35,167 bases of DNA, from sequence record SRR2962707_4996; one strand, given 5' to 3'. The notes beneath the pieces are model-generated. The model was not told the origin of the DNA. It worked only from the letters and a program-made list of their open reading frames with translations, and ran no database searches. Made by a program: the position numbers and the translations under genes. Position 1 is the first letter of the stretch. Every line of letters starts with the position of its first letter. Positions 2,834 to 19,674 of this stretch are shown here, piece after piece.

Positions 2834-2845
2834 TGATCTTTCCTA

Positions 2846-3640
2846 CTATGCATTTTTATTGGACTTTAGCCGCTCGCCACGTCGCCTGACGAATTCGGAT
2901 ATGAATAACAGTACGAATGAGAACACCACCATAATTACCGCTGCTGCGCTGATGGTTGGGCTGAGAAACTCGCGAAGGCCGGCAAACATCTGTCTAGGCA
3001 ATGTAAATTGACCAGGGCCTGTAATGAAAATGGCGATCACCAATTCATCAAATGAGGTTGCGAAGGCAAATATTGCACCGGCAATAACACCTGGCATTAT
3101 CATGGGTAGAACAACCTCACGAAATGCAGTTACCGGATGCGCGCCGAGTGACAATGCCGCTCGCAATAAATTCATATCGAACGTCTGAAGTGAAGCCAGC
3201 ACAGTGATCACCACATAAGGCGCTGCAATAATAGTGTGCGCAATAACCAGTCCCCAAAGGGAGTTGGCAATGCCAACTGTTGAAAATGCGAGATACATTG
3301 ATGTAGCGGTCACGATCAGTGGAACGACCATTGGCAAAGACAGCGCCGCCAAAACAAGCTTTTTGCCGCGGAACTCAGAATAGTTGATACCGAACGCCGC
3401 CATTGTTCCGAGCAACCCTGCCAAGATCATTGTAGCAAATCCCACGACAAAGCTGTTTTTCGTGGCAGATAACCAGCGCTCACTGAGGAAAAAGTCCGCA
3501 TACCACTGCAGTGAGTAACCCGGAACCGGCAAGGTGAGCACAGAACTTGAAGAAAAAGACAACGGGAAAATCACAAATATTGGTGAGAGCATAAACAGCA
3601 AAACCAACATCGCAAATCCAGGTACGACAAAACGCATCAT
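2846..3640 (-). CDS. ABC transporter permease (PotC-like)
   Basis: Multiple TM helices, EAA-like loop RAALSLGA, SFDE motif. Confidence 0.92.
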   Translation of the reverse strand: MMRFVVPGFAMLVLLFMLSPIFVIFPLSFSSSSVLTLPVPGYSLQWYADFFLSERWLSATKNSFVVGFATMILAGLLGTMAAFGINYSEFRGKKLVLAALSLPMVVPLIVTATSMYLAFSTVGIANSLWGLVIAHTIIAAPYVVITVLASLQTFDMNLLRAALSLGAHPVTAFREVVLPMIMPGVIAGAIFAFATSFDELVIAIFITGPGQFTLPRQMFAGLREFLSPTISAAAVIMVVFSFVLLFISEFVRRRGERLKSNKNA

Positions 3641-3655
3641 AATGATTTATCCCCT

Positions 3656-4834: not shown

Positions 4835-4860
4835 TGTAACGCTCCTGCACGATGAAATTA

Positions 4861-4887
4861 GTCCGCAATCATTGCATGAATGCGGAC
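4861..4887 (-). other. Intercistronic hairpin after the substrate-binding protein gene
   Basis: GTCCGCA...TGCGGAC inverted repeat between the SBP and first permease genes, a typical mRNA stabiliser/attenuator position in ABC operons. Confidence 0.55.
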
Positions 4888-4907
4888 CAAATCTAATTAA
4901 TTAGATA

Positions 4908-5939
4908 TTATTGAGCAGCCCAAGAAGTGAACCGCGCCTCTAAATCATCACCATTGGCAATCCAAAACTCAGTGCTGATGAAAAGACCCTCGTCAGCGTG
5001 GTTCAAAACCATGCCAGGATTTTTGGCACGAATGTCTGGATCTTGGTTGATTTCTTTGTTCGCTGGCGAAGAAGGATAAGCTGCAGCTTGTGCTCTTAGC
5101 GGGCCAGCATCGGTAATCCAGTCAATGAGTTCCATCGCTTCAGCTTCGTTAGCCGAGCCTTTCACAGCAGCCCAATAGTCAACAGAATACAGCAATGTAT
5201 TCCAGTTCATATCATAATTCGAACCTTCGTCATTGGCGCGAATGATGCGGCCTGTGTAACCAAATGCATAGTCTACTTCGCCGCTGCCGATAAATTGCAG
5301 CGGTTGCGCACCAGATTTCCACCAAACGATATCAGATTTGATTTCATCGAGCTTAGCAAAAGCACGATCAACACCTTCTGGAGTTGATAATACATCGTAG
5401 ACTTCGCCGGCAGGAACACCGTCAGCCATAAGTGCAATTTCGAGTGTCATTTTAGGACCGGTACGCAAAGAACGTTTACCTGGGAATGTCGCTACATCCC
5501 AAAATTCTTGCAAGTTCGTTGGTCCAGTTTCATGGCGTGCTTTGTCATAAAACACTGTAACGCCCCAACCTGCTCCACCAACACCACATTCGTGGACGGC
5601 AGATTCAACAAATTTGCTTTTGTCGATGACATTGTAATCAAGTTTTTCGAAGACACCGTCTTCGCAGCCACGAACAAGTTCAGGTGCTTCAACCATGATA
5701 ACATCGATGGTTGGATCTCCCGCTTCAACCATCGAATAAACCTTGGCCATCTCGCCATTGTAGACATCATCTACAACTTTAATGCCCTTTTCCTTTTCAA
5801 AAGACTGGAACAAATATTCGCGTGCGCTGTCTTGATAGCCGCCGCCGAAACCGACTACGGTTAGATCTCGGGCGAGTGCAGTGGATGATAACCCTACGAC
5901 AAAAGCGGCGCTCATAAAGAGTGTGGATTTTATATTCAT
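4908..5939 (-). CDS. ABC transporter substrate-binding protein (PotD/PotF-like family)
   Basis: Signal peptide ending ALA-RD. Motifs FWDVATFPGKRSLR, LEIALMADGV and GVDRAFAKLD. GGAG RBS. Confidence 0.9.
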   Translation of the reverse strand: MNIKSTLFMSAAFVVGLSSTALARDLTVVGFGGGYQDSAREYLFQSFEKEKGIKVVDDVYNGEMAKVYSMVEAGDPTIDVIMVEAPELVRGCEDGVFEKLDYNVIDKSKFVESAVHECGVGGAGWGVTVFYDKARHETGPTNLQEFWDVATFPGKRSLRTGPKMTLEIALMADGVPAGEVYDVLSTPEGVDRAFAKLDEIKSDIVWWKSGAQPLQFIGSGEVDYAFGYTGRIIRANDEGSNYDMNWNTLLYSVDYWAAVKGSANEAEAMELIDWITDAGPLRAQAAAYPSSPANKEINQDPDIRAKNPGMVLNHADEGLFISTEFWIANGDDLEARFTSWAAQ

Positions 5940-6072: not shown

Positions 6073-6098
6073 TGTAGTATTGTTATGCCAATAATACA
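6073..6098. promoter_or_regulatory. Putative upper-module operator TGTAGTA-N12-TAATACA
   Basis: Near-perfect inverted repeat just upstream of the aldehyde dehydrogenase RBS. Confidence 0.6.
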
Positions 6099-6111
6099 AA
6101 TGGAGCAGGCT

Positions 6112-7647
6112 ATGCTGGACAACGCAACAAATTCAAATATTTCACCAACCCCTTTGGATAGCAATGGCTTGCGCGTTTACGACCTTTATATTGATGGTGA
6201 GTTTCGCAAATCGGAATCTGGCGCCTATTTTGAAAGCACCGATCCTGTGTCGGGAGAAGTATGGTCAAAGGTCGCGCGGGCAACACCCGCGGATGTAGAT
6301 ACAGCATGCAAAGCTGCGCAAGCAGCATTTGAAAATCCTGAATGGCGATATATGTCGCAAAGCGACCGCGGCAGGTTATTGCGTAAATTGGGCGATTTAA
6401 TTCTGGAAAACTCCGATTGGCTCGCGCAAATTGAAATGAAAGATAATGGCAAGCTGATTGCTGAACTCAGCAATCAGATGCGATATTTGGCCAATTATTA
6501 TTATTACTATGGCGGTTTGGCCGATAAGATTGAAGGTTCTACAATTCCGACGGATAAGCCGGGTGTTTTTAATTTTACGCGTTACGAACCGCTTGGCGTT
6601 GTCGCATGCATTATGCCGTGGAATTCGCCGCTACCACTCACAAGCTTCAAATTGGCACCCGCGCTCGCTGCTGGTAATACAGTTGTATTAAAGCCGTCAG
6701 AATATACGTCGGCCTCACTGCTTGAACTGGTGAAGCTTGCAGAACTCGCTGGCTTTCCCAAAGGCGTAATCAATGTCGTTACTGGATTTGGCCATGAAAT
6801 TGGTAGCGCACTCGTTTCCCATCCATTGGTTGAGCGGATTGCCTTTACCGGCGGGCCGGAAGCTGGACGAATGATCAATGAACAAGCCGCTAAATCGATG
6901 AAACGCGTAACTCTAGAGTTGGGCGGCAAATCACCAAATATCATCTTCGAAGATGCTGATCTTGACCAAGCCATTAAAGGCGCCGTCGCTGGTATTTTCG
7001 CTGCATCTGGACAAACCTGTGTCGCCGGATCGCGGTTGCTACTCCAGCGGTCCATCCATGATGCCTTTTTGGAAAAATTGTGCCTCTTTTTAGAGGATAG
7101 CAAATTCGGCCATCCTTCAGATCCTGAAACGCAAATTGCACCTATCTCAACAACGCCCCAGATGAAGAAGATCGAGGAATATGTTGAAATTGCAAAAGCT
7201 GAAGGTGCCCGCTTGGTTCGCGGTGGCAAACGCGCAACCGTCGAAGGATACCCAAATGGCTTATTTTATGAGCCCACGATTTTTGCAGATGTTGATAACA
7301 AAATGCGCATTGCACAAGAAGAAGTGTTTGGCCCCGTTTTATCAATCATTCCCTTTGACGATGAAGATGATGCCGTCCGCATAGCAAATGATATTACATT
7401 CGGTCTGGCAGCTGGCATTTGGACGCAAAATCTTGCACGTGGGATCCGCATGACGGAAAGAGTGCGTGCGGGAACGATTTGGGTCAACAACTATCGATCC
7501 ACAAGTGTGACCTCACCGTTTGGCGGATTCAAAATGAGCGGCATCGGCCGCGAAGGCGGCATTGCTGGAATGATGGAATATCTAGAATTAAAAAGCGTAT
7601 GGATTTCGACAAATGTTGAAATTCCAAACCCGTTTATCAGACGTTAA
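6112..7647 (+). CDS. NAD(P)-dependent aldehyde dehydrogenase
   Basis: Motifs PWNSP, KPSE, FTGG, LELGGKSP (catalytic Glu), GQTCVAGS (catalytic Cys) and EEVFGP. ATG 6112 is preceded by GGAG. Confidence 0.95.
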   Translation: MLDNATNSNISPTPLDSNGLRVYDLYIDGEFRKSESGAYFESTDPVSGEVWSKVARATPADVDTACKAAQAAFENPEWRYMSQSDRGRLLRKLGDLILENSDWLAQIEMKDNGKLIAELSNQMRYLANYYYYYGGLADKIEGSTIPTDKPGVFNFTRYEPLGVVACIMPWNSPLPLTSFKLAPALAAGNTVVLKPSEYTSASLLELVKLAELAGFPKGVINVVTGFGHEIGSALVSHPLVERIAFTGGPEAGRMINEQAAKSMKRVTLELGGKSPNIIFEDADLDQAIKGAVAGIFAASGQTCVAGSRLLLQRSIHDAFLEKLCLFLEDSKFGHPSDPETQIAPISTTPQMKKIEEYVEIAKAEGARLVRGGKRATVEGYPNGLFYEPTIFADVDNKMRIAQEEVFGPVLSIIPFDDEDDAVRIANDITFGLAAGIWTQNLARGIRMTERVRAGTIWVNNYRSTSVTSPFGGFKMSGIGREGGIAGMMEYLELKSVWISTNVEIPNPFIRR

Positions 7648-8464
7648 TCGGGTTTGAGGCTTGGCTTGCAGGCACCCATTTAGGCGCTTCATCAAAATGA
7701 TTCTCCCGTGACAATGTCACGTGATATTCAAAATAATTCGGATTGTAGACAGCATCGACATATTGAACGGGGTTTCTGTTTGCATCAAGCATAACGCGCC
7801 GAACGCGGATAAGTGCCTGGCCAAGCGGCAGACGCAACCTCTGGGCTTCGGTTTCGCCAGCTGAAACCGCCGTTAGCTTTTGATCGATATCCATGACAAT
7901 GGTTCCAGTTTCCTCGATCGCCGTTGTCACGGTTTTATTCCCCAAAGCATCAACGTCGAGCAATTTTGCAATAGCTGACGGCACATAAACCCTGATGTGG
8001 GAAAACGGAATATCTTCAGCCAACCGCGTATATTCGATGCAAAGAACTTCTTCGTCTGTATTTTGAGAATGGGTTTCATCAATTGCCCATTGCGGCAATG
8101 GTGTCATTTCTGAACTTATCAGGTTGACCCTAGTTGTCGCCTCGAAGTCTTTGACGTTCTGATCAAACCCGCTGTAGTTTTCCGGCACGCTGCTTATAAT
8201 CGCGCTTGGATTTACGAAGGTGCCACGCCCGCGCAAGCGGGTGATCATATCGGCTTCTTCCAGTATGCTCATTGTGCGCCTGATTGTGACGCGAGAAACA
8301 TCAAAGCGGCTCGCCAACTCATGCTCGCCCGGCAATGGCGTATCTACTGGAAAGTCTCCACGCTCAATCTGCTTACGAATAATCTCGTAAACGCGGTAAT
8401 AAAGCGGAATAACATCCTGAACGGAGTTCTCACCTTTAGATTTCTTGTCTTGATGTAGTAACAT
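7637..8464 (-). CDS. GntR family regulator, HutC/UTRA subfamily
   Basis: wHTH motifs LPGEHELASRFDVSRVTIRR and RGRGTFV, C-terminal UTRA-like domain. Confidence 0.92.
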   Translation of the reverse strand: MLLHQDKKSKGENSVQDVIPLYYRVYEIIRKQIERGDFPVDTPLPGEHELASRFDVSRVTIRRTMSILEEADMITRLRGRGTFVNPSAIISSVPENYSGFDQNVKDFEATTRVNLISSEMTPLPQWAIDETHSQNTDEEVLCIEYTRLAEDIPFSHIRVYVPSAIAKLLDVDALGNKTVTTAIEETGTIVMDIDQKLTAVSAGETEAQRLRLPLGQALIRVRRVMLDANRNPVQYVDAVYNPNYFEYHVTLSRENHFDEAPKWVPASQASNPINV

Positions 8465-8539: not shown

Positions 8540-9277
8540 TTACAGTGATAGTTGCGGTACAACGCCGTCCAGTACTTTTGAACTTTTTATGCCGAGGCTT
8601 CGCATCACCCACCAAGCACTGCAAATATTAGACGATAGGAAAGGGATTTTGCTTGACTGAGAGGCTTTTTGGATCGCGGGCACAGTGATCATTCCCGTTC
8701 CAGATAGGACCACGGCATCGGCATCTGTATCACCAATTTCATTAAGTGCCGTCGCTACTTCATCTGTGGTCAGTTCATAGGCTTTGAACTCCTCGGACAT
8801 CTTGCGAATTTTCACAACTTCAAGACCGAGGCTTTCCCAGTAAGCCACGGAAAGTGCCGTTAGCCAATCAGGGTAAGGAGAGACAAGCACGATTGATCGC
8901 GCGTTTAATGTGTCTAACGCTTGCGAAATTGCGAAGCTCGCGGTCGTCACACGTGCACCAATGTCTTTTGAGAACTGTTCACACAGGGCTTTATCTTCTA
9001 TCGCTCCATTGCGATAGGATGGGCCGGTCAGACCGATTGAAAGAGCATCCAACTTTATGGAGCCAAAATCGTGAACCTGCTTTGCATATTTCTCAAGATA
9101 TATCTGATTGCGCTCGTCTAATGTCGTGTTAGGCATCGGGCTGAAGCGCGAGAAATGCAGGCCAACACTGCTTGGCAGCAAATAGCGCATTTCTGGCTCA
9201 ACGGTCGGATTGGCCGGAGGAACCAATACGCCAACGCGGTAGTCTGGATCCATAATTTTTGCGTCAATCGTATTCAT
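8540..9277 (-). CDS. Asp/Glu racemase - maleate isomerase - arylmalonate decarboxylase fold protein lacking both canonical cysteines
   Basis: GVLVPPANPTVEPE, VSPYP and SSN motifs. GLTG and SGTG sit where GCT and SCT are expected. ATGA overlap with the upstream monooxygenase. Confidence 0.85.
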   Translation of the reverse strand: MNTIDAKIMDPDYRVGVLVPPANPTVEPEMRYLLPSSVGLHFSRFSPMPNTTLDERNQIYLEKYAKQVHDFGSIKLDALSIGLTGPSYRNGAIEDKALCEQFSKDIGARVTTASFAISQALDTLNARSIVLVSPYPDWLTALSVAYWESLGLEVVKIRKMSEEFKAYELTTDEVATALNEIGDTDADAVVLSGTGMITVPAIQKASQSSKIPFLSSNICSAWWVMRSLGIKSSKVLDGVVPQLSL

Positions 9278-10476
9278 AGTGCGTCCTTAATTTTAGCTAA
9301 CTTACGCGGCGGCGCCATGTCGATCATCGAACTGGTCAATAAATAGTCGCGTGCTTTGGATGGATCAGCGGCAGCATCGGCAATGAAGGCCAGCCAATCT
9401 TGCTTACCAGTTACGTTCTTATCCGTTCTTGGAAGGAGGAAATCTGTAGCTATATGCAGCCGCTCTTTAAGGGCCGCCGCAAATATATCGACACCGCCGA
9501 TTGATGTTTCCAACTGGGAAATAATACTGGTGGCAATTCCATAGGCATCATGAAAACCGCAATTCATGTTCATGCCACCTTTTGTATTGGTCAAATGAAC
9601 CGCATCGCCGATGAGACCAATGCGCCCAAGATGGTTTTGTTTCACGACCATTTTGCTTGCGCCATATATATCCGTGCCGAGGATTTCTAAACCGCCGGCA
9701 ACCTTGGGCAAGAACTCGCGCACGATTGGCATATACCAATCTGCAGATTTTGCTTTTTCGTCACTTGTACCTTCTGGAACGCGGATGATGATGCGCCAGC
9801 AATCTGGCATTTCCAGCAAGCTCACAGATCTCTGATCTTCAGAATAAATATAGGAAACAGATGCCAACTCCGGCATCAAATCTACAATGGATTTATCGAC
9901 GATGAGGCGAAGAACGCGTCCAGGATATTTGACCCCTTCCTCATCAAAGCCAAGCGCATTTCGAACGGCGCTCTGAGCGCCATCGGCTCCAAGAACGAAT
10001 TTTGCCCGAATGGTTTCGCCATTCGTTGTGGTGACCCAAGCAGAAACATCGTCTTGCCCAACATCCTGCACCGCGGCCTGGTAACGGATCGTGGCTAAGT
10101 TTGTCGCCAGCGCTTTGGCCAATAAGTGAGGCGTTATTGCTGACTGCTCAAGGTGAACGCGGTAAGGCACCGATGTGTCTGCGCGAAGCGACACAGGCTG
10201 ATTAAATTCGCCAATTCGCTCGCCGCCGATTTTAAGATAAGCGATGCGTTCAGCTTTGCTGCCCAAATCAAGCATAACATCAAGAAGACCAAACTCATCT
10301 AGGATTTCTAAGGTCGGTGGATGAAACGTCGATGCTTTAGATGCAATATTTAGTGCATCGCGTTTTTCCAAAATGATGCTACTCACACCATGTTGCGCAA
10401 GTTTAAGCGCAGCTGTTAATCCAACCGGCCCTGCACCGCAAATTACGACATCACTATGCAACGCGGCATCTTCCAT
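9274..10476 (-). CDS. FAD-dependent monooxygenase (aromatic-ring hydroxylase family)
   Basis: GAGPVG, GADGA and GDAVH...GGMNMNCGFHDA fingerprints. Start moved to ATG 10476 (GGAGG RBS at 10482-10486 on the - strand). Confidence 0.92.
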   Translation of the reverse strand: MEDAALHSDVVICGAGPVGLTAALKLAQHGVSSIILEKRDALNIASKASTFHPPTLEILDEFGLLDVMLDLGSKAERIAYLKIGGERIGEFNQPVSLRADTSVPYRVHLEQSAITPHLLAKALATNLATIRYQAAVQDVGQDDVSAWVTTTNGETIRAKFVLGADGAQSAVRNALGFDEEGVKYPGRVLRLIVDKSIVDLMPELASVSYIYSEDQRSVSLLEMPDCWRIIIRVPEGTSDEKAKSADWYMPIVREFLPKVAGGLEILGTDIYGASKMVVKQNHLGRIGLIGDAVHLTNTKGGMNMNCGFHDAYGIATSIISQLETSIGGVDIFAAALKERLHIATDFLLPRTDKNVTGKQDWLAFIADAAADPSKARDYLLTSSMIDMAPPRKLAKIKDAL

Positions 10477-10499
10477 GGAAACCTCCAAACCAATCTTAA

Positions 10500-10524
10500 T
10501 GTATGTTGTATCTAACATAATACA
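10500..10524. promoter_or_regulatory. Putative upper-module operator upstream of the monooxygenase
   Basis: TGTATGT-N11-TAATACA containing the inverted repeat TATGTT-N6-AACATA. Confidence 0.5.
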
Positions 10525-10763
10525 ATAAGGCGCGCAACTGATCTTGAAACTGGATTATGCAACGGGAGATTAAAATGAACTTGAGCTGGAGCTGCATATC
10601 ACTGAAAAAGAACCGACCTTAGTTTTATCCAAATGTCATATTAAATTATTTACCTGCGGTTATTGATCGCGGGGTAACTTTGGATTGGATTTCCTGCTAT
10701 AGTGGACGCATAGTTAGTGATGTTTTGGCTATGCCAAAAGGTTACAAATCATTGGAGACGAAA

Positions 10764-11303
10764 ATGACTTTTGAAGCGCCATACGCACTCAATATTTCAG
10801 ATGTGGAGATTGTGACCAATAAAAAAGGGACACGCGAAGCTGTGGCTACTTTTCATGGCCGGATGGGCACGCAGACTGCAAAACAAGAGATAAAAAGCGA
10901 TGAATTTGCTGATTTATTTGATTGTTGCCGCCTGCTCGCAAAAGACATTCTGGCCAAAGAATTTCGATTAAATTCAAAAGTGGATTTAGACTTCGAACTT
11001 ACCAGTGAAGACGGAATCACCGTCTGGCATACGAAACCATCGACGTTCCTAAAAATACCGATGGAGATGAGCATGCAGTGGTCCTGCATGCATATGACGA
11101 AGAACTACAAATCGTTCACATCACTCGGTGTCGTCGAAATGCCGTCTGAATTTAAATTGGTCAATGGCGCGCTTCCAACAAAAGAAACACTCCAGTTGAT
11201 GCTCAACTCCATGGAATCAGGCATCGAATTTATGGGCATGTTGATCCAACAGCGTGACGAAATCGATCATGACAAGGAAATGGCAGCTGAAAAAGCCTCA
11301 TAA
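10764..11303 (+). CDS. Hypothetical protein, no family recognised
   Basis: 179-aa ORF with GGAG RBS before ATG 10764. Fills an otherwise empty interval. Confidence 0.65.
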   Translation: MTFEAPYALNISDVEIVTNKKGTREAVATFHGRMGTQTAKQEIKSDEFADLFDCCRLLAKDILAKEFRLNSKVDLDFELTSEDGITVWHTKPSTFLKIPMEMSMQWSCMHMTKNYKSFTSLGVVEMPSEFKLVNGALPTKETLQLMLNSMESGIEFMGMLIQQRDEIDHDKEMAAEKAS

Positions 11304-11406: not shown

Positions 11407-12711
11407 GTGAGAAGTCTGATGGATTGTAAAAGCGCCGCATTTGAATATGGAAAAACCTATCGTGATCGCGCGCTAAAGAGCGTTGCTTTCGGCGTAAGCT
11501 CAACCCCTCGAGGCAGGCAACTACCTGCGCCTATCGTGGTAAAACGCGCTGTAAATGCGCATGTTTTTGATGAAACTGATAATAAGTTCATTGACTACGC
11601 GCTTGGTTATGGTCCCCTTATTCTCGGCCACAGCCCGCAATGCGTTATCGACGCCGTTCACCACGAGCTCGCAATGGGTATGCGCACGGCAAGCGTGCAT
11701 AAAGGCGAGGCTGAATTAGGCGAACTCATTGCCCAAACACTACCCTGCGCAGAACTATCCTCGTTCGTTAGCTCCGGCTCAGAAGCCGTGCACCTTGCAT
11801 TACGAACAGCAAGAGCTGTCACTGGTAAATTGCCAATTATAAAATTCCGCGGAAATTATCATGGCTGGCTTGATAATATCCACATAGCCAATGACGTGCA
11901 GAACGATGGGCCGGCAACGGTAGGTCAAGACAACAGCGCCGCGCAGAATATTAAGATTTTGGATTGGGGTGATACCGATGCGTTTATGCGCGAAATTTCA
12001 TCTGATTATGCAGCAGTTATTCTAGAACCAATTGCGGTCAATGGCGGATGCGTTTATCCGCCGGCAGGCTTTCTTGAGTGCGTTAGGCAAAAGACGAAAG
12101 AGTTGGGCGTCGTTCTCATTTTCGACGAAGTGATAACAGGCTATCGCCTATCGCTTGGCGGCGCGCAGGAAAAATTGGGCATCACGCCTGATTTGTCCGT
12201 AATCGGAAAATCGATGGGCGGCGGTCTGCCTATTGGCGCTATCGCCGGCACAGCTGAAGTTATGGAGCCTATTGCTTCTGGCCGCATGCTTCATCGCGGC
12301 ACTTTCAATGGCAATCCGCTAAGCGTTGCCGCTTCAATTGCTTCCATCACTTATCTTCGCGATAATAGCGCGACGCTCTACCCCAAAATTGACGCGATGG
12401 CGAAAGATTTGGAAGATCATGCAAAGCAATGCGTTGCCGCGACCAATTTAACGGCGAGCATAACGCGGACAGGCTCTGCCTTGCAGATATTTCTTGGCAC
12501 GTCCGAAATCAAAAAACTTGCCGACACGGCAAACATTAGCCGGGAGCAAACGGCCGACTTTGCCGCCGAATTATTGATACGCGGTGTGCAAACGATATCG
12601 CGCGGTTTGATGTATGTATCAAATGCCCATACGCCAACCGACATTGAGGAAACAAAACAGGCTTTCGACGGCGCATTTGAAGCCCTTGCCGCTAAAGCAA
12701 TCGCGTCATAA
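11407..12711 (+). CDS. Class-III PLP aminotransferase (glutamate-1-semialdehyde aminomutase-like, probably not true HemL)
   Basis: SSGSEA, YHGW, IFDEVITGYR, PLP Lys in GKSMGGGLP, GTFNGNP. Alternative start at ATG 11419. Confidence 0.9.
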   Translation: MRSLMDCKSAAFEYGKTYRDRALKSVAFGVSSTPRGRQLPAPIVVKRAVNAHVFDETDNKFIDYALGYGPLILGHSPQCVIDAVHHELAMGMRTASVHKGEAELGELIAQTLPCAELSSFVSSGSEAVHLALRTARAVTGKLPIIKFRGNYHGWLDNIHIANDVQNDGPATVGQDNSAAQNIKILDWGDTDAFMREISSDYAAVILEPIAVNGGCVYPPAGFLECVRQKTKELGVVLIFDEVITGYRLSLGGAQEKLGITPDLSVIGKSMGGGLPIGAIAGTAEVMEPIASGRMLHRGTFNGNPLSVAASIASITYLRDNSATLYPKIDAMAKDLEDHAKQCVAATNLTASITRTGSALQIFLGTSEIKKLADTANISREQTADFAAELLIRGVQTISRGLMYVSNAHTPTDIEETKQAFDGAFEALAAKAIAS

Positions 12712-12863
12712 TCGAGCGTGAAACATTCAGAAGACGGTGCATACATTGCGGTTCGCTTTGTTGATAGTTAACCGCCAATATTTAATTTTCGGCGCGCTGA
12801 ATTTAAAAAATGAAGAATTAAAGCGGAAATCCCTTACAACAAATCTTGTTCTATTTTTCAAAT

Positions 12864-12875
12864 AGTGTTAACACT
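12864..12875. promoter_or_regulatory. Putative lower-module operator AGTGTTAACACT
   Basis: Perfect 12-bp palindrome upstream of the lyase gene, matching sites at 14588 and 14664. Confidence 0.65.
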
Positions 12876-12913
12876 TTTGTAAATTCCAATTCAAAATAGA
12901 ACTGAGATATATA

Positions 12914-13843
12914 ATGGATAAAGCCAAGTCATCGAAGGCCCGCATTTACCGCGAAATGATTGCAAGCGGCGATCTTATCGTATCGGCGGGTGCTTATGAC
13001 GGTTATAGCGCTCGGTTAATCGAGAAAGCTGGATTTAAGACGGTCGCAACCAGCGGAGCTGCCATTTCCAATTCCCGCATGGGCATTGCAGATATGGGCT
13101 TCATGGGGCTCGCAGAGAATTTAGACCAATGCCGAGCAATCGTTCGGTCGGTTAATATTCCTGTCACCTGTGATGCTGATACCGGCTACGGGAATCCGGT
13201 TAATGTCTACCACACAGTTCAAGAATTTGAGGCTATTGGCGCAGTTGGCGTGAACATCGAAGACCAAGTTAATCCCAAGCGCTGCGGCCATATGGCGGGC
13301 AAAGAGGTGATTGACCGCGTTGAAATGATCAAGAAAGTTGGAGCCGCTTGCCGTGCTCGCCGTGATGATGATTTTGTGATTGTTGCCAGAACAGATGCCC
13401 TCGCGGTTGAGGGTATGGATAAAACGCTTGAGCGCATTCGTGATTATGTAAAAGCCGGCGCCGACATGATTTTTGCCGACGCCGTTGATTCCGAAGAGAC
13501 ACTTGCGCGCATTCTAGAAGCAAGCGATGCGCCTGTTACGGTGAATATGGGTTTTGGTATTCGCGAGCGGCCAACAACGCCATTAATTCCCCTACCCCGC
13601 CTGAAAGAAATGGGGGTTAAACGGATCAGCTTGCCGCGCATGTTGCCAGCTGCGGCCATCATGGGCATGCGTTCAGCATTAGAGGTAATGCGCGAAGTGA
13701 TGGAAACTGGAAAACCAGCTCATCGCCCAGATTTGCTGGTCGGTATCGAAGATATTATGGACCTTATGGACTATGAATCAGCGCGCGCATTGGAAGCCGA
13801 ACTCCTATCAGTGGAAAAAATCCAAACTAAATATAAAAGCTAG
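12914..13843 (+). CDS. Isocitrate lyase/PEP mutase family C-C lyase (PrpB / 2,3-dimethylmalate lyase-like)
   Basis: DADTGYG, IEDQ, catalytic loop KRCGH, VARTDA, AGADMIF. Confidence 0.92.
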   Translation: MDKAKSSKARIYREMIASGDLIVSAGAYDGYSARLIEKAGFKTVATSGAAISNSRMGIADMGFMGLAENLDQCRAIVRSVNIPVTCDADTGYGNPVNVYHTVQEFEAIGAVGVNIEDQVNPKRCGHMAGKEVIDRVEMIKKVGAACRARRDDDFVIVARTDALAVEGMDKTLERIRDYVKAGADMIFADAVDSEETLARILEASDAPVTVNMGFGIRERPTTPLIPLPRLKEMGVKRISLPRMLPAAAIMGMRSALEVMREVMETGKPAHRPDLLVGIEDIMDLMDYESARALEAELLSVEKIQTKYKS

Positions 13844-13910: not shown

Positions 13911-14576
13911 TTAGGCGCCGTTGAGCAATTGATGTGCGTGTTCATCTGCCAATTGGGATTGAAGGCTGTGCGTCGCGCGCGCGATATGGTTACGCATCAA
14001 CGATTCTGCCAAAAATGCGTCGCGCGACTTCATCGCCTTGAGGATCTGCCAGTGCTCATTATGGGCCGTCTCACTGCGACCAGGGGTGCGGCTGGACCGA
14101 TAACGATACATGCGAAGTAAGTAGTAAAGCTCATCACAGAGATAATTTCTTATGCGCTCGTTTCCGCAACCAGCCGCTATTCGTTGATGAATATCAACCG
14201 GCTCAACGTCTGGATTTTCCAGCGCCTCTGAAAAATCATTTAAGAGCTGATCTAAGTCTGCGTCAGACATCGCCTGCGTGGCAAGGCGCACAGACATCGC
14301 CTCTACCCCCTCTCTGATTTGGAAAATTTCAATCATATGCGCGACCGTTAACTCAATCACACGGGCCTTCATAAAAGGTTCTTTTTTGATGAGGCCAACG
14401 CCTTCAAGACGTTTTACCGCCTCGCGCACGGGACCACGACTAACATCGAGCTTTTTAGCAATCGACAACTCATTAACTGGTGCGCCCTGAGGTATTTTAC
14501 CTTCGATAACTTGCGACAAAATGAGCTTAAAAATCTCATCAACCATCGTCTTACTATTTTGCTGCTGAATCATCAC
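13911..14576 (-). CDS. GntR family regulator with FCD domain, similar to methylcitrate-cycle PrpR
   Basis: VSRGPVREAVKRLEG wHTH. LCDELYYLLRMYR...EHWQIL...RDAFLAESLMRNHI resembles GntR-type PrpR proteins. Confidence 0.9.
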   Translation of the reverse strand: MMIQQQNSKTMVDEIFKLILSQVIEGKIPQGAPVNELSIAKKLDVSRGPVREAVKRLEGVGLIKKEPFMKARVIELTVAHMIEIFQIREGVEAMSVRLATQAMSDADLDQLLNDFSEALENPDVEPVDIHQRIAAGCGNERIRNYLCDELYYLLRMYRYRSSRTPGRSETAHNEHWQILKAMKSRDAFLAESLMRNHIARATHSLQSQLADEHAHQLLNGA

Positions 14577-14663: not shown

Positions 14664-14679
14664 AAAGTGTTGACACTTT
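14664..14679. promoter_or_regulatory. Putative lower-module operator AAAGTGTTGACACTTT overlapping a TTGACA element
   Basis: AAAGTGT-TG-ACACTTT inverted repeat upstream of the aconitase operon. Confidence 0.65.
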
Positions 14680-14704
14680 TACCAAAAATAGTTATTTTGA
14701 AAGT

Positions 14705-17449
14705 ATGGTTTTAGAGCAAGAAATCGACACGCCTTTAAAGCGCTTTAAATTAAGTGCGCCGGTCGATTATACCTGCGTTGACTTGCAGAAAATCACTTCA
14801 GCGCGCAGCAAACCTTTACCGAAAAGCCTACTCGTCGTGCTCGACAACCTCTCTCGCCAAAAGCGACTTGGAAAGAATGTAGATCACGAAATAGGGACGC
14901 TCATCGGCTGGCATACAGCCTCACCGGAACTCAGTTTTCCGCTTTGCGTTGATCGGGTTTTATTTCCCGATAGCAGCGGATTGCCTGCATTAATGGACTT
15001 GGCTGCGGCGCGTGATGCTATCAAGCAAAGAGGCGGCGATCCCTCGTCTATAGAGCCAACTGTACCTGTCACTTTAGTCGTCGATCATTCTTTGATGGTT
15101 GACTATTTTGGTCGCCTAGATGCTGCGGCGCTAAACGAAGCCAAAGAAATTGAGCGCAATGGTGAACGCTATGCTTTTCTTAAATGGGCCGAAAGCGCCT
15201 TTGATGCGCTTTCTATTGTACCGCCAGGATCAGGTATTATCCATCAGGTGCATTTGGAAAAATTGGCGGAACTTATCAAAGTCGATGTAAGCGACCCCTC
15301 CAGCCCCTTGGTTTGCCCAGAATTCGTGCTCGGCTGCGACTCGCATACAACTATGATCAACGCCATCGGCCTTTTAGCCTGGGGTGTAGGCGGCATTGAT
15401 GGCGAAAGCGCGATGCTTGGCCATCCTTACACTGTTCGCATTCCCCGTGTAGTCGGCGTGCGCTTAGTTGGAAAGCTTGGTGCGGGGATTATGCCGACAG
15501 ATCTCGTTTTAACGATCACACACCGGCTTCGTAAGTTCGGCGTGACCGGTGCATTCGTCGAATTCTTTGGTGAAGGTCTGGATGATTTGTCCGTCCCCGA
15601 TAGAGCAACAATTGCAAACATGGCGCCTGAATATGGCGCAACAATTGGCTTCTTCCCAATTGATGACAGAACCATCGATTACTTAAAACAATCAGGGCGC
15701 AGTACTGATCGTATTGCGTTGATCCAAGCTTACGCAACCGAGACTGGTTTGTTTCGGCGCAGCGGCGAAACTGAGCCCGAATTCAGCAGCGTTATCGAAA
15801 TTGATCTTTCCGAAATCACGCCAAGCGTGGCAGGGCCCAAGCGGCCGCAGGATCTCGTCGCGTTAAAAGACATCGCAAAAACATTTCACAATGCACTTTG
15901 GCGCGCGCCAGAGGACGGCGGCTTTGGTCTCTCCTTAGATGATTTGGAAAAATCCGCCCAAATTACTTTAGAGGGCAAAAGCCATGAATTGACCCATGGC
16001 AATATTACCATCGCGGCGATTACCTCTTGTACCAACACCTCTAATCCGACGGTTATGTTTGGCGCAGGCCTGCTGGCGCGCAATGCGCGGGCGTTTGGCC
16101 TAAAAGTGCCCCCCTTTGTCAAAACCTCGATGGCACCGGGTTCGAAACTTGTAACCGATTATTTGCGCAATGCCGATTTACTTACCCCACTTGAAGAACT
16201 TGGTTTTTATGTTGTTGGATATGGCTGCACGACCTGCTCTGGTAAATCTGGCCCTATCAACGAAAGCATCGCATCTGCTGTAATGGACAATGATCTTGTC
16301 GCCACATCAGTTCTTTCTGGCAATCGCAACTTTGAGGGTCGCATTCATAAGTCTTGCCGCGCAAACTACCTAGCATCCCCGCCATTGGTTGTTGCTTTGG
16401 CCCTCGCCGGCCGCATCGATATTGATTTTGATTTTGAGCCCTTGGGCATCGCACAAAATGGAACGCCGGTGTTTTTGCGTGATATATGGCCGGACCGCGA
16501 AGAGATCGCAACCTACGTCGGCACGAGCCAAGTGCCGCAACAATTTACGAATAGCTACAAATCTCTGTTTGACGGATCGCAATTGTGGAACGAACTTGAA
16601 TGCGCCGACGGTGAGACTTTTCCGTGGGATGCGGGCAGCACATATTTGAAGCGTCCTCCATTTTTTGAACTTGTGAAAAGTGTTCAGGCCGATGCGTTGA
16701 ACAATTGCCAGGCCCTTGTCGTCGCCGGCGATTCATTGACCACAGACCATGTGACGCCAAGCGGCGAAATTCTGCCAGAAAGTCTTGCAGGCAAATATTT
16801 GATTGAAAATGGCGTTGCACCCAAGGACTTTAATGCTGTGACGCAGCGCCGTGGCAATCATGAATTCATGGCGCGCATAACATTTGGCAATCAGCGCATG
16901 AAAAATCGGCTCGCTGGCGGCCAAGAAGGTGGGTTCACTAGGCTTGGAGACGACGAAGAGCTAATACCAATTTTTGAAGCGTCTCAATGGATGCAAAAAA
17001 ATGATGTTACGCCCATCGTTATCGCCGGACGTGATTATGGCATGGGATCGAGCCGCGATTGGGCGGCCAAAGGGCCAATGCTTCTGGGCATTAGAATTGT
17101 GCTCGCGCAATCATTCGAACGCATCCATCGCTCTAATCTGGTTGGCATGGGCATCATGCCTCTTATTTTTGAAGAGGGCACTTCAACTGAAACACTCAAT
17201 CTCACGGGCTTTGAAACTTTTGAATTTAAAGGGCTGAATAACGCAATTGCCCGCGGCGAAAAGATTAAAGTCACCGCGCGAAGCCAAGGTCAACTGGTTG
17301 CCGAGTTTGATGTCGTTTTAGATATCTCAAATGCCCATGAGCGCCACCTACTCCAAAGCGGCGGCATATTTCAAAACCTTATAGAAAACAGTGTTGCAGC
17401 TTTGCCAAGTGCAGAAGCACGCAAACACTTTAGCCAAGAGGCACAATGA
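14705..17449 (+). CDS. acnA: Aconitate hydratase A family protein (paralogue with altered substrate motifs)
   Basis: DHS, DSHT, NMAPEYGAT, AITSCTNTSNP, GCTTC, SGNRNFEGR, GSSRDWAAKG and FERIHRSNL. All three Fe-S cysteines are present. Confidence 0.93.
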   Translation: MVLEQEIDTPLKRFKLSAPVDYTCVDLQKITSARSKPLPKSLLVVLDNLSRQKRLGKNVDHEIGTLIGWHTASPELSFPLCVDRVLFPDSSGLPALMDLAAARDAIKQRGGDPSSIEPTVPVTLVVDHSLMVDYFGRLDAAALNEAKEIERNGERYAFLKWAESAFDALSIVPPGSGIIHQVHLEKLAELIKVDVSDPSSPLVCPEFVLGCDSHTTMINAIGLLAWGVGGIDGESAMLGHPYTVRIPRVVGVRLVGKLGAGIMPTDLVLTITHRLRKFGVTGAFVEFFGEGLDDLSVPDRATIANMAPEYGATIGFFPIDDRTIDYLKQSGRSTDRIALIQAYATETGLFRRSGETEPEFSSVIEIDLSEITPSVAGPKRPQDLVALKDIAKTFHNALWRAPEDGGFGLSLDDLEKSAQITLEGKSHELTHGNITIAAITSCTNTSNPTVMFGAGLLARNARAFGLKVPPFVKTSMAPGSKLVTDYLRNADLLTPLEELGFYVVGYGCTTCSGKSGPINESIASAVMDNDLVATSVLSGNRNFEGRIHKSCRANYLASPPLVVALALAGRIDIDFDFEPLGIAQNGTPVFLRDIWPDREEIATYVGTSQVPQQFTNSYKSLFDGSQLWNELECADGETFPWDAGSTYLKRPPFFELVKSVQADALNNCQALVVAGDSLTTDHVTPSGEILPESLAGKYLIENGVAPKDFNAVTQRRGNHEFMARITFGNQRMKNRLAGGQEGGFTRLGDDEELIPIFEASQWMQKNDVTPIVIAGRDYGMGSSRDWAAKGPMLLGIRIVLAQSFERIHRSNLVGMGIMPLIFEEGTSTETLNLTGFETFEFKGLNNAIARGEKIKVTARSQGQLVAEFDVVLDISNAHERHLLQSGGIFQNLIENSVAALPSAEARKHFSQEAQ

Positions 17450-17452
17450 CCC

Positions 17453-18808
17453 ATGTTTGATTTAACTTTGGCCAACGGCAACATCATATTTCCTGGTGAC
17501 AGCGTTCGCGCAGGTACACTTGGTATCAAGAATGGGAAAATTGCAGCCATCCTTCCCGCAAGTGACAAACCAAAATCTGAACGCACAATTGATTGCACTG
17601 ACAAATGGATTTTTCCAGGGCTTATTGATCCGCATACGCATATCGGTTTTGGCAATAAAGAGAATGATTGGGACACTGAATCAAAAGCAGCAGCGCTTGG
17701 CGGTGTGACCGGACTAATGAGTTTCTGGCGCGGTGATAGTCTTGCCGATTCTGCAACCAAGTGGAAGCAAGAAGCCCTTCAACGAAGCATCATCGATTTC
17801 GGGTTTCATTTTGGCATTACCTCACACCAGCATGTTGCCGAACTCGCTGAGGTGACAAAGCTGCATGGCGTCAGCTCAATCAAAGTTTATTTGATGTATA
17901 AGGGTGCGACCGGCGCGGCAAAAGGCTTTACCGAGGTTGATGACAGTCTACTTTTTGCAGCGCTAAATGCAGGCTCCAAAGTCAAAGGCGGCGTTGTCGG
18001 AGTTCATTGTGAAAACACGGAAGTAATTCCGTTTTTCCGCGGCCCTATCAAGGATTCCGGACGCGATGATCTTTTGGCATGGGATGAGCAATCGCCCGAT
18101 TTTCTAGAAACTGAAAATGTTTTCAGGGTCTGTTATTTTGCGGAAAAAACCAATTGCCCCGTCAATATTGTGCATATGTCGGCGCTCGAAAGCTTAAATT
18201 TAGTGCGCAAAATGCGGCATCGAAATCGCCCGCCAATTCATGTTGAAACATGCATTCACTATTTAAGCCTTCCCCATGATGCGCCCATCGGATCACTTGG
18301 AAAAGTGAACCCACCGCTACGCTCGCAGGCCGATATTGATGGTCTTTGGGAAGGCATTATTGCCGGTGACATTACAACTGTTGGCTCTGACCATGTTCCG
18401 CGCAAACGGTCGACAAAGGGGCCGAGCATATGGGAAGCTTCAGCCGGTTTTCCCGGTATCGGGCAAATTCTTCCAGTTTTGCTGCAGGAAGGATTTTTCA
18501 ATCGCGATGTGCCGCTTGCAACGCTTGCCGCAGTTACCAGCAAGAACGTCGCGAAATTATATAAGCTTGCCTATAAGGGTGATATCGCAATTGGCTATGA
18601 TGCCGATTTTGCCATCGTCGATCCCCATAGTGAAACACTGATCAAAGCAGACGCATCTCCCTCTTATTCGGACTACTCAGTCTACGAAGGGAAAAAATGC
18701 CAAGGGCGGATCACGCACACCATATTACGGGGCAGCATCTTGGCCGAAGACGGCGCGCTCTCTGTGAATGAAAAGCCTGCTGGACAATATTTACACCGCG
18801 CGTGTTGA
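17453..18808 (+). CDS. Cyclic amidohydrolase (dihydroorotase/hydantoinase/allantoinase family)
   Basis: DPHTH, carboxylatable Lys (SIKVY), VHCEN, VHMS, KVNPPLR, GSDH, DADFAI. Confidence 0.92.
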   Translation: MFDLTLANGNIIFPGDSVRAGTLGIKNGKIAAILPASDKPKSERTIDCTDKWIFPGLIDPHTHIGFGNKENDWDTESKAAALGGVTGLMSFWRGDSLADSATKWKQEALQRSIIDFGFHFGITSHQHVAELAEVTKLHGVSSIKVYLMYKGATGAAKGFTEVDDSLLFAALNAGSKVKGGVVGVHCENTEVIPFFRGPIKDSGRDDLLAWDEQSPDFLETENVFRVCYFAEKTNCPVNIVHMSALESLNLVRKMRHRNRPPIHVETCIHYLSLPHDAPIGSLGKVNPPLRSQADIDGLWEGIIAGDITTVGSDHVPRKRSTKGPSIWEASAGFPGIGQILPVLLQEGFFNRDVPLATLAAVTSKNVAKLYKLAYKGDIAIGYDADFAIVDPHSETLIKADASPSYSDYSVYEGKKCQGRITHTILRGSILAEDGALSVNEKPAGQYLHRAC

Positions 18809-18819
18809 AAGGAATTAAA

Positions 18820-19539
18820 ATGACACAACGAGTATGGGACAAATTCCTTACGGAAAAAGACAAGAAGATCTTTCAACTGGCCGGTTATGGAAAGCGTGGC
18901 GGCTTTGGCACGCGGCCAGCCCTGTTTATTATCGATGTTCAATATAATTTTTGTGGTGATGAGCCCGGCGAAGCGCAAGAAGAAGGCGTGAAAAAATATC
19001 GCACCCATTGCGGTGAAGTTGGCTGGAAGGCTGTGCCACATATCGAGCGCCTATTAAAAATAGCGCGCGAGAAAAATTTGCCGGTTTTCTATACCCAGTC
19101 AGAACGGCGTCCCGATATGATTGATAGCGGCGTACAGGTTGGTAAAAATCATCGCGGCTCTGAAAAGACGAGCCAAGAAGGAACACATGCCACGCAGACA
19201 GTTGCCCCGCTAAAGCCGGAGCCTCAAGATATTTTAATTGGCAAGCGAAAACCTTCGGCGTTCTTCGGCACTATCTTTATGAGCCATCTGAACTTTTTGG
19301 ATGTAGATACGCTCATCATGACCGGTTGCACGACATCTGGCTGCCTACGCGCAACATCGGTTGATGCCTATTCTCTAAATTTCAAAGTGATCATACCTGA
19401 GGAAACCGCATTTGATCGTTTTGAAGCCAGTCATGCCATTAATCTGTTTGATCTAAACTGCAAATATGCCGATGTGATACCGGTTGATGAAGTAGCCCAA
19501 TATATGGAAAGCCTACCGGTGCGCGCGAACCCAGAATAA
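18820..19539 (+). CDS. Isochorismatase family amidase (maleamate amidohydrolase / N-carbamoylsarcosine amidase-like)
   Basis: Asp-Lys-Cys triad: IIDVQ, K..PSAFFGT, TTSGCLRAT. ATG 18820 follows an AAGGA RBS. Confidence 0.92.
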   Translation: MTQRVWDKFLTEKDKKIFQLAGYGKRGGFGTRPALFIIDVQYNFCGDEPGEAQEEGVKKYRTHCGEVGWKAVPHIERLLKIAREKNLPVFYTQSERRPDMIDSGVQVGKNHRGSEKTSQEGTHATQTVAPLKPEPQDILIGKRKPSAFFGTIFMSHLNFLDVDTLIMTGCTTSGCLRATSVDAYSLNFKVIIPEETAFDRFEASHAINLFDLNCKYADVIPVDEVAQYMESLPVRANPE

Positions 19540-19611: not shown

Positions 19612-19674
19612 CTGACCTCTGAAGGCAGAGGTCTGTTGTTCGAATCGCGCCGAGTGCACCAATAATTTCAATGG
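19612..19674 (+). repeat. Degenerate att direct repeat (copy of the tRNA 3' half from the anticodon arm, plus 13 nt of flank)
   Basis: 19626-19674 CAGAGGTCTGTTGTTCGAATCGCGCCGAGTGCACCAATAATTTCAATGG aligns to 1-49 with 7 mismatches. The T-stem is disrupted, and there is no D-arm or acceptor 5' strand upstream. Confidence 0.9.

Follow-up and report, generated by a model that had tools for sequence, protein, structure and literature searches.

The subject of this study is an aconitase-family gene in the 35,167-nucleotide sequence SRR2962707_4996, hereafter referred to as the window, together with the genes that accompany it. The encoded protein belongs to a distinct, conserved and mis-annotated AcnA-type subfamily, named here the PDSSG/SGK clade, which is part of a self-regulated catabolic module. 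This module of marine Alphaproteobacteria probably mineralises a ring acid that contains nitrogen, with ammonia and central metabolites as the end products. Within it, the paralogue is rather probably a dedicated hydratase of a substituted aconitate or maleate, which would arise when a carboxylated cyclic imide or amide is opened by hydrolysis and deamidated, and the hydrated product would then be cleaved by a lyase encoded beside it. The coordinates of the features are collected in Table 1.

The aconitase paralogue and its clade

According to the translation, positions 14705-17449 on the plus strand form a single open frame of 914 codons. Its product contains PF00330 at amino acids (aa) 78-569 (E 1.6e-144) and PF00694 at aa 697-824 (E 1.6e-31) and passes three curated AcnA cutoffs (TIGR01341, 1075.8 vs. 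945; NF006757, 1129.9 vs. 686; NF009520, 1096.8 vs. 905), while the AcnD model TIGR02333 is failed with 717.6 bits at a cutoff of 1419.85. Human IRP1/cytosolic aconitase (2b3x) was matched at E 9.4e-241 with 847 residues aligned, and mitochondrial aconitase (mAcn) could be aligned in three stretches. Excerpts from PMC8184944 name Ser642, the three cysteine ligands, Asp165, His147, His167 and His101 as the landmarks of mAcn. In the alignment, the Fe-S ligands C442, C508 and C511 correspond to mAcn C358, C421 and C424, D212-H214 to Asp165-His167, H128 to His101, H180 to His147 and S782 to the base Ser642. The catalytic or carboxylate-binding positions D127-H128, D212-S213-H214, N540-R541, R546, R715-R716 and S782-S783-R784 are kept as well, and all ligand, catalytic and substrate-arginine positions are invariant in the 131 clade members and the 50 canonical AcnA sequences compared. 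We take the conserved arginine that follows TQ (the R715/R716 pair) to be the equivalent of mAcn Arg580 and IRP1 Arg699, and, from the classical structural papers, presume that mAcn Gln72, Ile425, Ser571 and Arg580 line the substrate site. The reading frame is, as judged from these alignments, a full-length AcnA/IRP1-type enzyme with a predicted intact cluster and catalytic set, which agrees with the preliminary description of this DNA, where the cluster ligands and catalytic motifs had been called intact.

The comparison set contained 131 signature-type and 50 canonical AcnA sequences. The former were composed of 106 protein clusters, including the query, and 25 translations from the loci described below, with duplicates kept (L041 and L071 are the same gene) and with some of the locus translations probably re-sampling clusters already among the 106 proteins. 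With AcnA/IRP1 (2b3x/2b3y; TIGR01341) the paralogue has the four-domain architecture, the three cysteine ligands, the catalytic Ser, His and Asp and the four substrate arginines in common, whereas aa 88, 90, 91, 93, 117, 183, 206, 211, 512, 514, 684, 686, 713 and 882 are replaced. The canonical and the clade residues, with their counts out of 50 and 131, respectively, are Q (50) and P (131) at aa 88, F (48) and S (131) at aa 90, T (50) and S (131) at aa 91, V (50) and L (127) at aa 93, N (50) and H (127) at aa 183, T (50) and C (113) at aa 211, I (50) and S (129) at aa 512, N (50) and K (131) at aa 514, S (50) and T (114) at aa 684, A (50) and S (115) at aa 686, and G (50) and T (126) at aa 713; the same pattern, no variation among canonical AcnA and a change in the clade, holds for aa 117, 206 and 882. 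In total, 13 positions at which all 50 canonical sequences agree are replaced. Further signature sites are (V/Y)TQRRGNH as opposed to YG[SA]RRGN, GCDSHT as opposed to GTDSHT, EFVL as opposed to DTLV, and MGSSRD.

The combined signature (PDSSG, HQ[VI]H[LI]E, CTTCSGKSG, xT[QM]RRGNH, MGSSRD) was present in 105 of the best 120 homologue clusters, the 15 others being canonical AcnA, and is kept down to about 50% identity with the query. In the FastTree phylogeny, the 131 signature tips are monophyletic with zero canonical sequences inside, a support of 0.989 and a stem of 0.46. Judged from the alignments and the tree, the motif changes define a clade and go beyond chance or drift. The five motifs quoted in the preliminary description were recovered by translation at the coordinates given there. 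Its statement that these are changes of near-invariant AcnA motifs stands for the QDFTG, CTTCIGNSG and HQVNLE sites, but GIDGE (aa 230-234) is not diagnostic, since GIEAE, GIDAE and GIEGE all occur within the clade, and DHVTPSG (aa 681-687) is diagnostic in part, the counts of T684 and S686 showing that it is not fixed clade-wide.

A basal sub-branch (P0110, P0111, L082, L089 and L090) carries an intermediate signature with PDSSG and CTTCGGKSG, but with HQLNLE, Y[VA]xRR and TGSSRD; in L082 and L089 the amidohydrolase and amidase genes described below still lie downstream of the aconitase. The His of DH(I/V)xP at aa 682 (nucleotides (nt) 16748-16750) is H in 50 of 50 canonical sequences and H in 89, F in 37 and Q in 3 of the 131 clade members.

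The gene was proposed to encode a paralogue and not the housekeeping aconitase, and a canonical AcnA was indeed present as a second copy in all four carrier genomes checked, with 46-48% identity to the paralogue, which is therefore an extra copy located in a catabolic operon with amide hydrolases. This context argues against a role of the paralogue in the citric acid cycle. The paralogue is rare. An aconitase match was found in 319 of 401 alphaproteobacterial genomes, a tally that takes in G041 and G241, which are unpublished; an identity above 55% was reached only in G113, and the next 29 best places were canonical. The CTTCSGKSG DNA pattern occurred in three of 401 Rhodobacterales genomes (reversed control, 0). 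A contig scan seeded with peptides, which are themselves poorly conserved, returned only canonical AcnA of unrelated taxa among the matches listed. The gene is also found on the annotated plasmid pSMS3-3 of Antarctobacter heliothermus, a diatom-associated strain. Cultured bacteria among the named carriers are A. heliothermus SMS3, Stappia indica, Sulfitobacter sp. D7 and Pararhizobium sp. IMCC21322. Every named member of the clade among the protein clusters is annotated as "aconitate hydratase AcnA"; the clade signature is missed by automatic annotation, and the query passes the curated cutoffs.

The proximity of the replaced residues to the substrate was judged from the sequence neighbours of the catalytic residues and from a parallel with AcnD. 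S512 and K514 lie one and three residues past the cluster ligand C511, H183 lies three residues past H180 (mAcn His147), C211 directly precedes D212 (mAcn Asp165), and T713 and Q714 directly precede the conserved arginine pair. AcnD, the Fe/S-dependent 2-methylcitrate dehydratase, is described in excerpts from PMC5690661 as an AcnA-like enzyme that acts on a different substrate. The reference used here, the annotated gene of the prpC-acnD-prpF operon of Diaphorobacter, departs from AcnA at the same alignment positions as the paralogue: AcnA, AcnD and the paralogue read QDFTG, HDILG and PDSSG at the first site, CTTCIGNSG, CTTCNGMSG and CTTCSGKSG after the cluster cysteine, and GSRR, ATHR and TQRR in the loop ahead of the arginine pair. 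However, the residues at these shared positions differ. AcnD also works with a lyase of the phosphoenolpyruvate (PEP) mutase/isocitrate lyase (ICL) family, and a lyase of this family is encoded beside the paralogue, whereas the context of AcnD is prpC and prpF and the partners of the paralogue are a cyclic amidohydrolase and an amidase. Neither prpC nor prpF was found among the open reading frames (ORFs) of the window in the Pfam and NCBIfam annotation. To our knowledge, AcnD is so far the sole single-chain AcnA-type aconitase outside citrate chemistry, and the clade would be the second such departure.

These positions agree with two further points of the preliminary description, namely that the altered residues would be placed near the active site and that a new lysine is found close to the cluster (K514, in 131 of 131 clade members). 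Since the residues at 88, 90, 91 and 512 are smaller than in AcnA, the pocket would be enlarged and would fit a substrate with a bulkier substituent.

The conserved core module and its operator

The proteins of the window were compared by tblastn with 31 loci, comprising 26 metagenome loci, four genome regions and plasmid pSMS3-3. The metagenome loci (20-kb) had been picked by the CTTCSGKSG DNA pattern, and the synteny counts therefore describe the clade and not aconitases in general. Five genes constitute a conserved core module: a PrpB-like lyase, a GntR regulator with FCD domain, the aconitase, a hydantoinase-like amidohydrolase and an isochorismatase-like amidase. The genomic context of the homologues, which the preliminary description had singled out for checking, is conserved, as core partners recur around the clade aconitases in 20/22 to 22/25 loci.

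The lyase gene is present in 20 of the 22 loci that extend 2 kb or more upstream of the aconitase. Its product matches 2,3-dimethylmalate lyase (3fa3) at 2.8e-40 and falls below the prpB equivalog TIGR02317 (241.9 bits vs. a cutoff of 354.4). Aligned to E. coli PrpB, it keeps KRCGH, DADxG (as DADTGY), EDQ and ARTDA, and with them the Mg-binding motifs, but is changed at E. coli PrpB positions 43-47, 188, 210-214 and 231-241, where new Arg and Lys residues appear. In these segments, which we take to form the substrate pocket, NITEFG is replaced by N[IL]RxRPT and VAMALYPLSAFR by V[KR]R[VI][TS]LPRMLPA. The net gain is at least four basic residues and is kept in 14 of the 14 family members aligned. 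The new Lys by the aconitase cluster and the new Arg and Lys residues of the lyase point to a substrate that would carry one more acidic group than (methyl)isocitrate; the extra carboxylate suggested in the preliminary description fits these gains in the adjacent enzyme.

Downstream of the aconitase, the amidohydrolase gene was found in 22 of the 25 loci with at least 1.5 kb of downstream DNA. The protein matches D-hydantoinase 1nfg at 1.1e-55, is equally distant from D-hydantoinase and allantoinase, and remains below the named equivalogs (D-hydantoinase, 262.5 vs. 393.25; allantoinase, 260 vs. 357.85; ErtD, 242.3 vs. 650). The motifs DPHTH, IKVYLMYK (with K154), HCEN, VHMS and SDH are visible in the translation and presumably form the binuclear metal site, with HxH, the carboxylated Lys, two His and Asp. 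The amidase gene follows in 21 of 24 loci. Its product is related to N-carbamoylsarcosine amidohydrolase (4.4e-31) and to 4l07/4l08 and 3ot4/3uao, which are labelled in the database only as isochorismatase-family hydrolases and which we take to be maleamate amidases of nicotine and nicotinate catabolism. Candidates for the catalytic triad are D45, K148 and C176, seen in IIDVQ, GKRKPS and TGCTTSGC of the translation. The three genes are tightly packed, with a 3-nt gap after the aconitase and an overlapping or near start for the gene that follows the amidohydrolase. Across 22 loci the amidase is 72-92% identical, as compared with 50-68% for the aconitase, amidohydrolase and lyase of the same loci (aconitase, 57-67%).

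The aconitase operon and the lyase gene are both preceded by a palindrome with the consensus AAGTGT(T/C)(G/A)ACACTT, which upstream of the aconitase overlaps the best -35-like hexamer. The window contains two such sites, a count that was reached by 0 of 100 shuffles. The strict 12-mer palindrome has 27 copies in the 443 kb of the loci as opposed to approximately 0.1-0.2 expected from base odds. In 11 of the 23 loci with enough upstream DNA, it precedes the estimated aconitase start by 34-56 nt, a spacing that is conserved in relatives, and others contain near-matches. In 14 loci, the promoter region of the variable module contains a further copy, at a distance of 2.8-5 kb, which argues that the variable modules share the regulon of the core. 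The GntR-FCD gene adjoins the aconitase in 20 of the 22 loci with at least 2 kb upstream, and its product is presumed to be the putative repressor that acts at the palindrome (AAGTGTYRACACTT). Within positions 14665-14705, a -10-like TATTTT ends 7 nt ahead of the aconitase ATG, and the mRNA may therefore be leaderless or nearly so.

Proposed pathway and alternative explanations

From the observed gene content and order, the shared operator, the retained catalytic residues and the clade-specific replacements, we infer the following reactions, their sequence and the kind of substrate. A variable upper module would take up a carboxylic compound that contains nitrogen and oxidise it to a carboxylated cyclic imide or amide; in the window, this module would consist of an amine-type ATP-binding cassette (ABC) importer, a HemL-like transaminase, an aldehyde dehydrogenase, a PnpA/HspB-like monooxygenase and a racemase-superfamily enzyme. 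The ring would be opened by the hydantoinase-like metallo-amidohydrolase, and the isochorismatase-family Cys-hydrolase would free the remaining amide nitrogen as ammonia, leaving a substituted cis-aconitate or a maleate-type polycarboxylate. The paralogue would then hydrate the double bond or shift the hydroxyl to give a 2-substituted isocitrate analogue, with the enlarged pocket and the added Lys accepting the extra substituent, which probably bears a further carboxylate. Finally, cleavage of this product by the PrpB-like lyase would yield a 2-oxo acid together with succinate or a different acid. Through one palindromic operator, the GntR-FCD repressor would govern the aconitase operon together with the lyase gene and also, in the majority of relatives, the upper module. 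Opening, deamidation, hydration and retro-aldol cleavage represent the simplest linear pathway in which each of the five core genes has a part. Our literature searches found no published description of the five-gene module, nor a paper that treats aconitase, isochorismatase, methylisocitrate lyase and dihydropyrimidinase together.

Several points weigh against this pathway. The loci picked by motif are a biased sample, and the amidohydrolase is missing in L097, L099 and L104, the aconitases of which have 47, 52 and 43% identity. Because the best solved relative of the amidase hydrolyses a carbamoyl group, the product of this step would be an amine and not an aconitate-like acid. The nearness of the changed residues to the bound substrate is deduced from their sequence neighbours and from the AcnD parallel, and promoter- and terminator-like sites as a class are no commoner than in shuffles. 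Since the curated AcnA cutoffs are passed, the paralogue may also retain some citrate/isocitrate activity.

The last point leads to the explanation that the paralogue is an ordinary second AcnA isoenzyme whose neighbourhood arose by chance. The three AcnA cutoffs and the complete set of catalytic residues agree with it, but a deep clade has other residues fixed at the thirteen otherwise invariant positions, the order of the genes is conserved, as is the operator that they share, canonical AcnA accompanies the paralogue in four of four carriers, and with one and three of the 401 sampled genomes the paralogue is rare, so that we consider this explanation very improbable. It is also highly unlikely that the protein is an AcnD-like enzyme of a variant methylcitrate cycle, which would dehydrate 2-methylcitrate in concert with the PrpB-like lyase in propionate catabolism. 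The position of the lyase gene next to the aconitase, a PrpD-family gene by the module in G113 and the precedent of AcnD, an AcnA paralogue in such a role according to excerpts from PMC5690661, would fit. On the other hand, the score with the AcnD model is about half its cutoff (717.6 vs. 1419.85), the residues at the signature sites are unlike those of AcnD, the window is without prpC or prpF, the lyase is under the prpB cutoff with its presumed pocket altered, and the tight link to two amide hydrolases would be left unexplained. The relationships of these two hydrolases give rise to a further explanation, in which they act as a hydantoinase/dihydropyrimidinase and a decarbamoylase that convert a cyclic ureide to an amino acid, with the aconitase and the lyase on a separate or later branch, for example after a transamination. 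D-hydantoinase/allantoinase and N-carbamoylsarcosine amidohydrolase are the best solved relatives, NCBIfam gives sub-threshold matches to the hydantoin-5-propionate amidohydrolase ErtD and to biuret and ureidoacrylate hydrolases, and the window has a transaminase and an aldehyde dehydrogenase. However, the core is without a transaminase in most loci, which would leave an amine product without a route to the aconitase substrate, and the translational coupling of the three genes (3-nt gap) together with the one operator shared with the lyase argues for one linear pathway; we therefore regard the ureide route as quite unlikely. Ureide routes of the histamine, ergothioneine and pyrimidine type were set aside, because they lead to amino acids, for which no aconitase is required.

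The preliminary description favoured porphobilinogen (PBG) as the substrate. PBG would be imported, its aminomethyl group transaminated and oxidised, and the pyrrole hydroxylated to an imide, which would be opened and deamidated to (carboxymethyl)(carboxyethyl)maleate ("carboxyethyl-aconitate"), hydrated and split into 2-oxoglutarate and succinate. The skeleton of PBG maps neatly onto these two products, the HemL-like transaminase is in an operon with the lyase, a bona fide hemC lies by the ABC importer in the window and, in a different arrangement, in L083, the binding protein is related to proteins that bind γ-aminobutyrate (GABA) and opines, which makes an amino-carboxylate ligand probable, and K514 of the aconitase and the Arg/Lys gains of the lyase are as expected for a tetracarboxylate. 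Both hemC and the transaminase gene lie with the module in the window, but outside the window each was found in only one of the 31 loci (L083 for hemC and L085 for the transaminase), and most carriers combine the same core with the type T module described below, i.e., a tripartite tricarboxylate transporter (TTT), a flavoprotein and a short-chain dehydrogenase/reductase (SDR). HemC is a biosynthetic enzyme whose aligned catalytic positions are all kept, and the gene may simply be a housekeeping copy. A literature search found no paper on PBG catabolism, and we consider PBG unlikely as the substrate. Homarine catabolism was set aside, the word "aconitase" having 0 occurrences in the available part of the hom operon paper, and so was an isonicotinate/citrazinate route, for which the literature search found no paper.

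The pathway preferred here, in which imide opening and deamidation precede hydration and cleavage, has a counterpart in the nicotinate fermentation of Eubacterium barkeri with its enamidase, dimethylmaleate hydratase (DmdAB) and 2,3-dimethylmalate lyase. The logic is the same, that is, ring opening by the amidohydrolase family, hydration of a substituted maleate by the aconitase family and cleavage by the ICL/PEP-mutase family. DmdAB, however, is a two-subunit LeuCD-type enzyme of an anaerobe, whereas the enzyme described here is a single-chain AcnA-type protein of aerobic marine Alphaproteobacteria and is combined with a separate amidase step. The lower nicotinate/nicotine pathway (HspB/NicC, NicF/Ami, NicE/Iso) also resembles the window, which contains relatives of HspB, of maleate isomerase and of the isochorismatase-family entries 4l07 and 3ot4/3uao, the last of which we take to be maleamate amidases. 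This pathway ends in fumarate, whereas the product here would pass to an aconitase-type hydratase and a lyase; the window is without a ring-cleaving dioxygenase or a deformylase, and ring opening would thus be hydrolytic. In cyclic-imide metabolism, an imidase and a half-amidase, or HxnM and HxnN in fungi, open the ring and deamidate the half-amide to a di- or polycarboxylate (excerpts from PMC13098106, PMC11424739 and PMC9304392). D-hydantoinase-type enzymes act as imidases (excerpts from PMC13098106 and PMC11424739), and D-hydantoinases hydrolyse cyclic imides (excerpts from PMC13098106). In contrast to the present module, these pathways are not known to include an aconitase-family or lyase step, and the substrates described for them are simple imides or hydroxyglutarimide.

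A more general form of the pyrrole idea, which we consider doubtful, is that the core represents a lower pathway, missing until now, by which carbon and nitrogen from single pyrrole rings are used. Monopyrroles of tetrapyrrole metabolism would be converted to cyclic imides and hydrolysed to alkyl- or carboxyalkyl-maleates, which the paralogue would hydrate, and the lyase would then release 2-oxoglutarate and succinate or propionate; the source would be PBG in loci that, like the window, have hemC and the transaminase, and hematinic-acid-type maleimides or their dihydro forms in the TTT loci, which are more common. Hematinic-acid-type maleimides are breakdown products of haem, bilirubin and chlorophyll (excerpts from PMC10343206 and PMC7318184). 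If true, the aconitase family would gain a new reaction, and bacteria associated with phytoplankton would have a new way of recycling the debris of tetrapyrroles. Irrespective of its nature, identification of the substrate would extend the reactions of the aconitase family and give functions to four further genes that are mis- or under-annotated. It could also reveal that the carrier bacteria draw on a pool of dissolved organic nitrogen that has gone unrecognised.

Variable upper modules and other genes of the window

Table 1. Features of the window discussed in the text (strand "." for the palindromic sites).
Feature	Position	Strand	Remarks
hemC (hydroxymethylbilane synthase)	598..1704	+	TIGR00212, 280.9 bits vs. 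cutoff 164
PotABCD-type ABC importer (ATPase, two permeases, binding protein)	1742..5939	-	Orthologues beside the core in L080, L083, L091, L103
NAD(P)-dependent aldehyde dehydrogenase	6085..7647	+	Next to the ABC genes in L080, L085, L091, L103
GntR/UTRA (HutC-type) regulator	7637..8464	-	Pfam; also in L085; presumed upper-module regulator
Asp/Glu-racemase-superfamily protein (arylmalonate decarboxylase/maleate isomerase-like)	8540..9277	-	2xed at 1e-11; same 6 loci as the monooxygenase
Group-A flavin adenine dinucleotide (FAD) monooxygenase (PnpA/HspB-like)	9274..10518	-	Type A; HspB 7da9 at 1.4e-24
Conserved 207-aa protein	10680..11303	+	52%-identical ORF at the same position in L085
HemL-like (glutamate-1-semialdehyde aminomutase-like) class III aminotransferase	11407..12711	+	311.7 bits vs. 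cutoff 398; window and L085 only
Second operator copy TAGTGTTAACACTT	12863..12876	.	Upstream of the lyase gene
PrpB-like C-C lyase, PEP mutase/isocitrate lyase family	12914..13843	+	KRCGH kept, presumed pocket altered
GntR regulator with FCD domain	13911..14576	-	PF00392 and PF07729; divergent from the aconitase operon
Palindromic operator AAGTGTTGACACTT	14665..14678	.	Overlaps the TTGACA -35-like hexamer of the aconitase operon
AcnA/IRP1-type [4Fe-4S] aconitase-family paralogue, PDSSG/SGK clade	14705..17449	+	914 aa; Pfam, NCBIfam, IRP1 match, clade tree
PDSSG for canonical QDFTG	aa 88-92, nt 14966-14980	+	P88, S90, S91 fixed in 131/131 of the clade
HQVHLE, N183 to H	aa 180-185, nt 15242-15259	+	H180 kept (mAcn His147); H183 in 127/131 of the clade
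CTTCSGKSG, I512 to S, N514 to K	aa 508-516, nt 16226-16252	+	Ligands C508, C511 kept
TQRR, two residues ahead of the Arg pair changed from G-[S/A]	aa 713-716, nt 16841-16852	+	Alignments
Hydantoinase/dihydropyrimidinase/allantoinase-like cyclic amidohydrolase	17453..18808	+	3 nt past the aconitase stop
Isochorismatase-family Cys-hydrolase (amidase)	18802..19539	+	Likely true start ATG 18820, AGGA-type ribosome-binding site
Terminator-like hairpin past the three-gene operon	19614..19633	+	Sequence scan

The core is combined with upper modules of different types. The type A module, found in the window and in L080, L085, L087, L091, L102 and L103, contains the flavin monooxygenase and the maleate-isomerase/arylmalonate-decarboxylase-like protein, usually together with a PotABCD-type importer and an aldehyde dehydrogenase. 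The binding protein of the importer in the window is nearest to opine- and GABA-binding proteins. The HemL-like transaminase, the 207-aa protein and the GntR/UTRA regulator were found only in the window and in L085; the 207-aa protein gave neither a Pfam nor an NCBIfam match and no usable match in an Atlas search. Repeats of TAATGTAG are located at 6070-6079 and at 11366 and 11374 (11366-11383), including the palindrome TAATGTAGATACATTA, just ahead of the genes for the aldehyde dehydrogenase and the transaminase. These repeats are a candidate operator of the GntR/UTRA regulator, with weak statistics in that 24 of 100 shuffles reach the count at one mismatch.

The type T module, which is paired with the core in most carriers, consists of the TctABC transporter, a flavocytochrome-c/TcuA-like flavoprotein and an SDR. 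Judged by ORF clusters, for each of which one representative was annotated, TctC was found in eight loci, TctA in seven and the flavoprotein in six. A SnoaL/NTF2-like ORF of about 135 aa lies between the aconitase and the amidohydrolase in L071, L072, L076-L078, L084, L086, L088, L092, L093, L095, L100 and L101. These loci carry the TTT transporter; neither the window nor any other type A locus has the ORF. In G113, a PrpD-family gene, the flavoprotein and an NMT1-type binding protein lie by the module.

The membership of hemC in the system is uncertain. The HemC of the window keeps all aligned catalytic positions of E. coli HemC, and its gene is convergent with the importer ATPase gene. In L083, hemC (3557-4642, plus strand) is 65% identical, lies on the same strand as the ATPase gene and 22 nt past it, and is directly beside the GntR and aconitase genes. 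Both hemC calls include an N-terminal extension of 60-80 aa without a HemC counterpart, perhaps due to an over-long start call.

Two other regions of the window were annotated. Positions 29285-35167 form a separate cluster with a RutR/YcdC-like TetR regulator, an M20 amidohydrolase, a second hydantoinase-like amidohydrolase (31331-32785) and ABC transporter genes, which looks like an ordinary hydantoin or pyrimidine utilisation cluster. At positions 19920-21485 on the minus strand, a 521-aa glycosyltransferase is encoded with a DXD sugar-binding region and an Anp1 domain, a domain family best known from fungal mannosyltransferases, and two more glycosyltransferase genes adjoin it.

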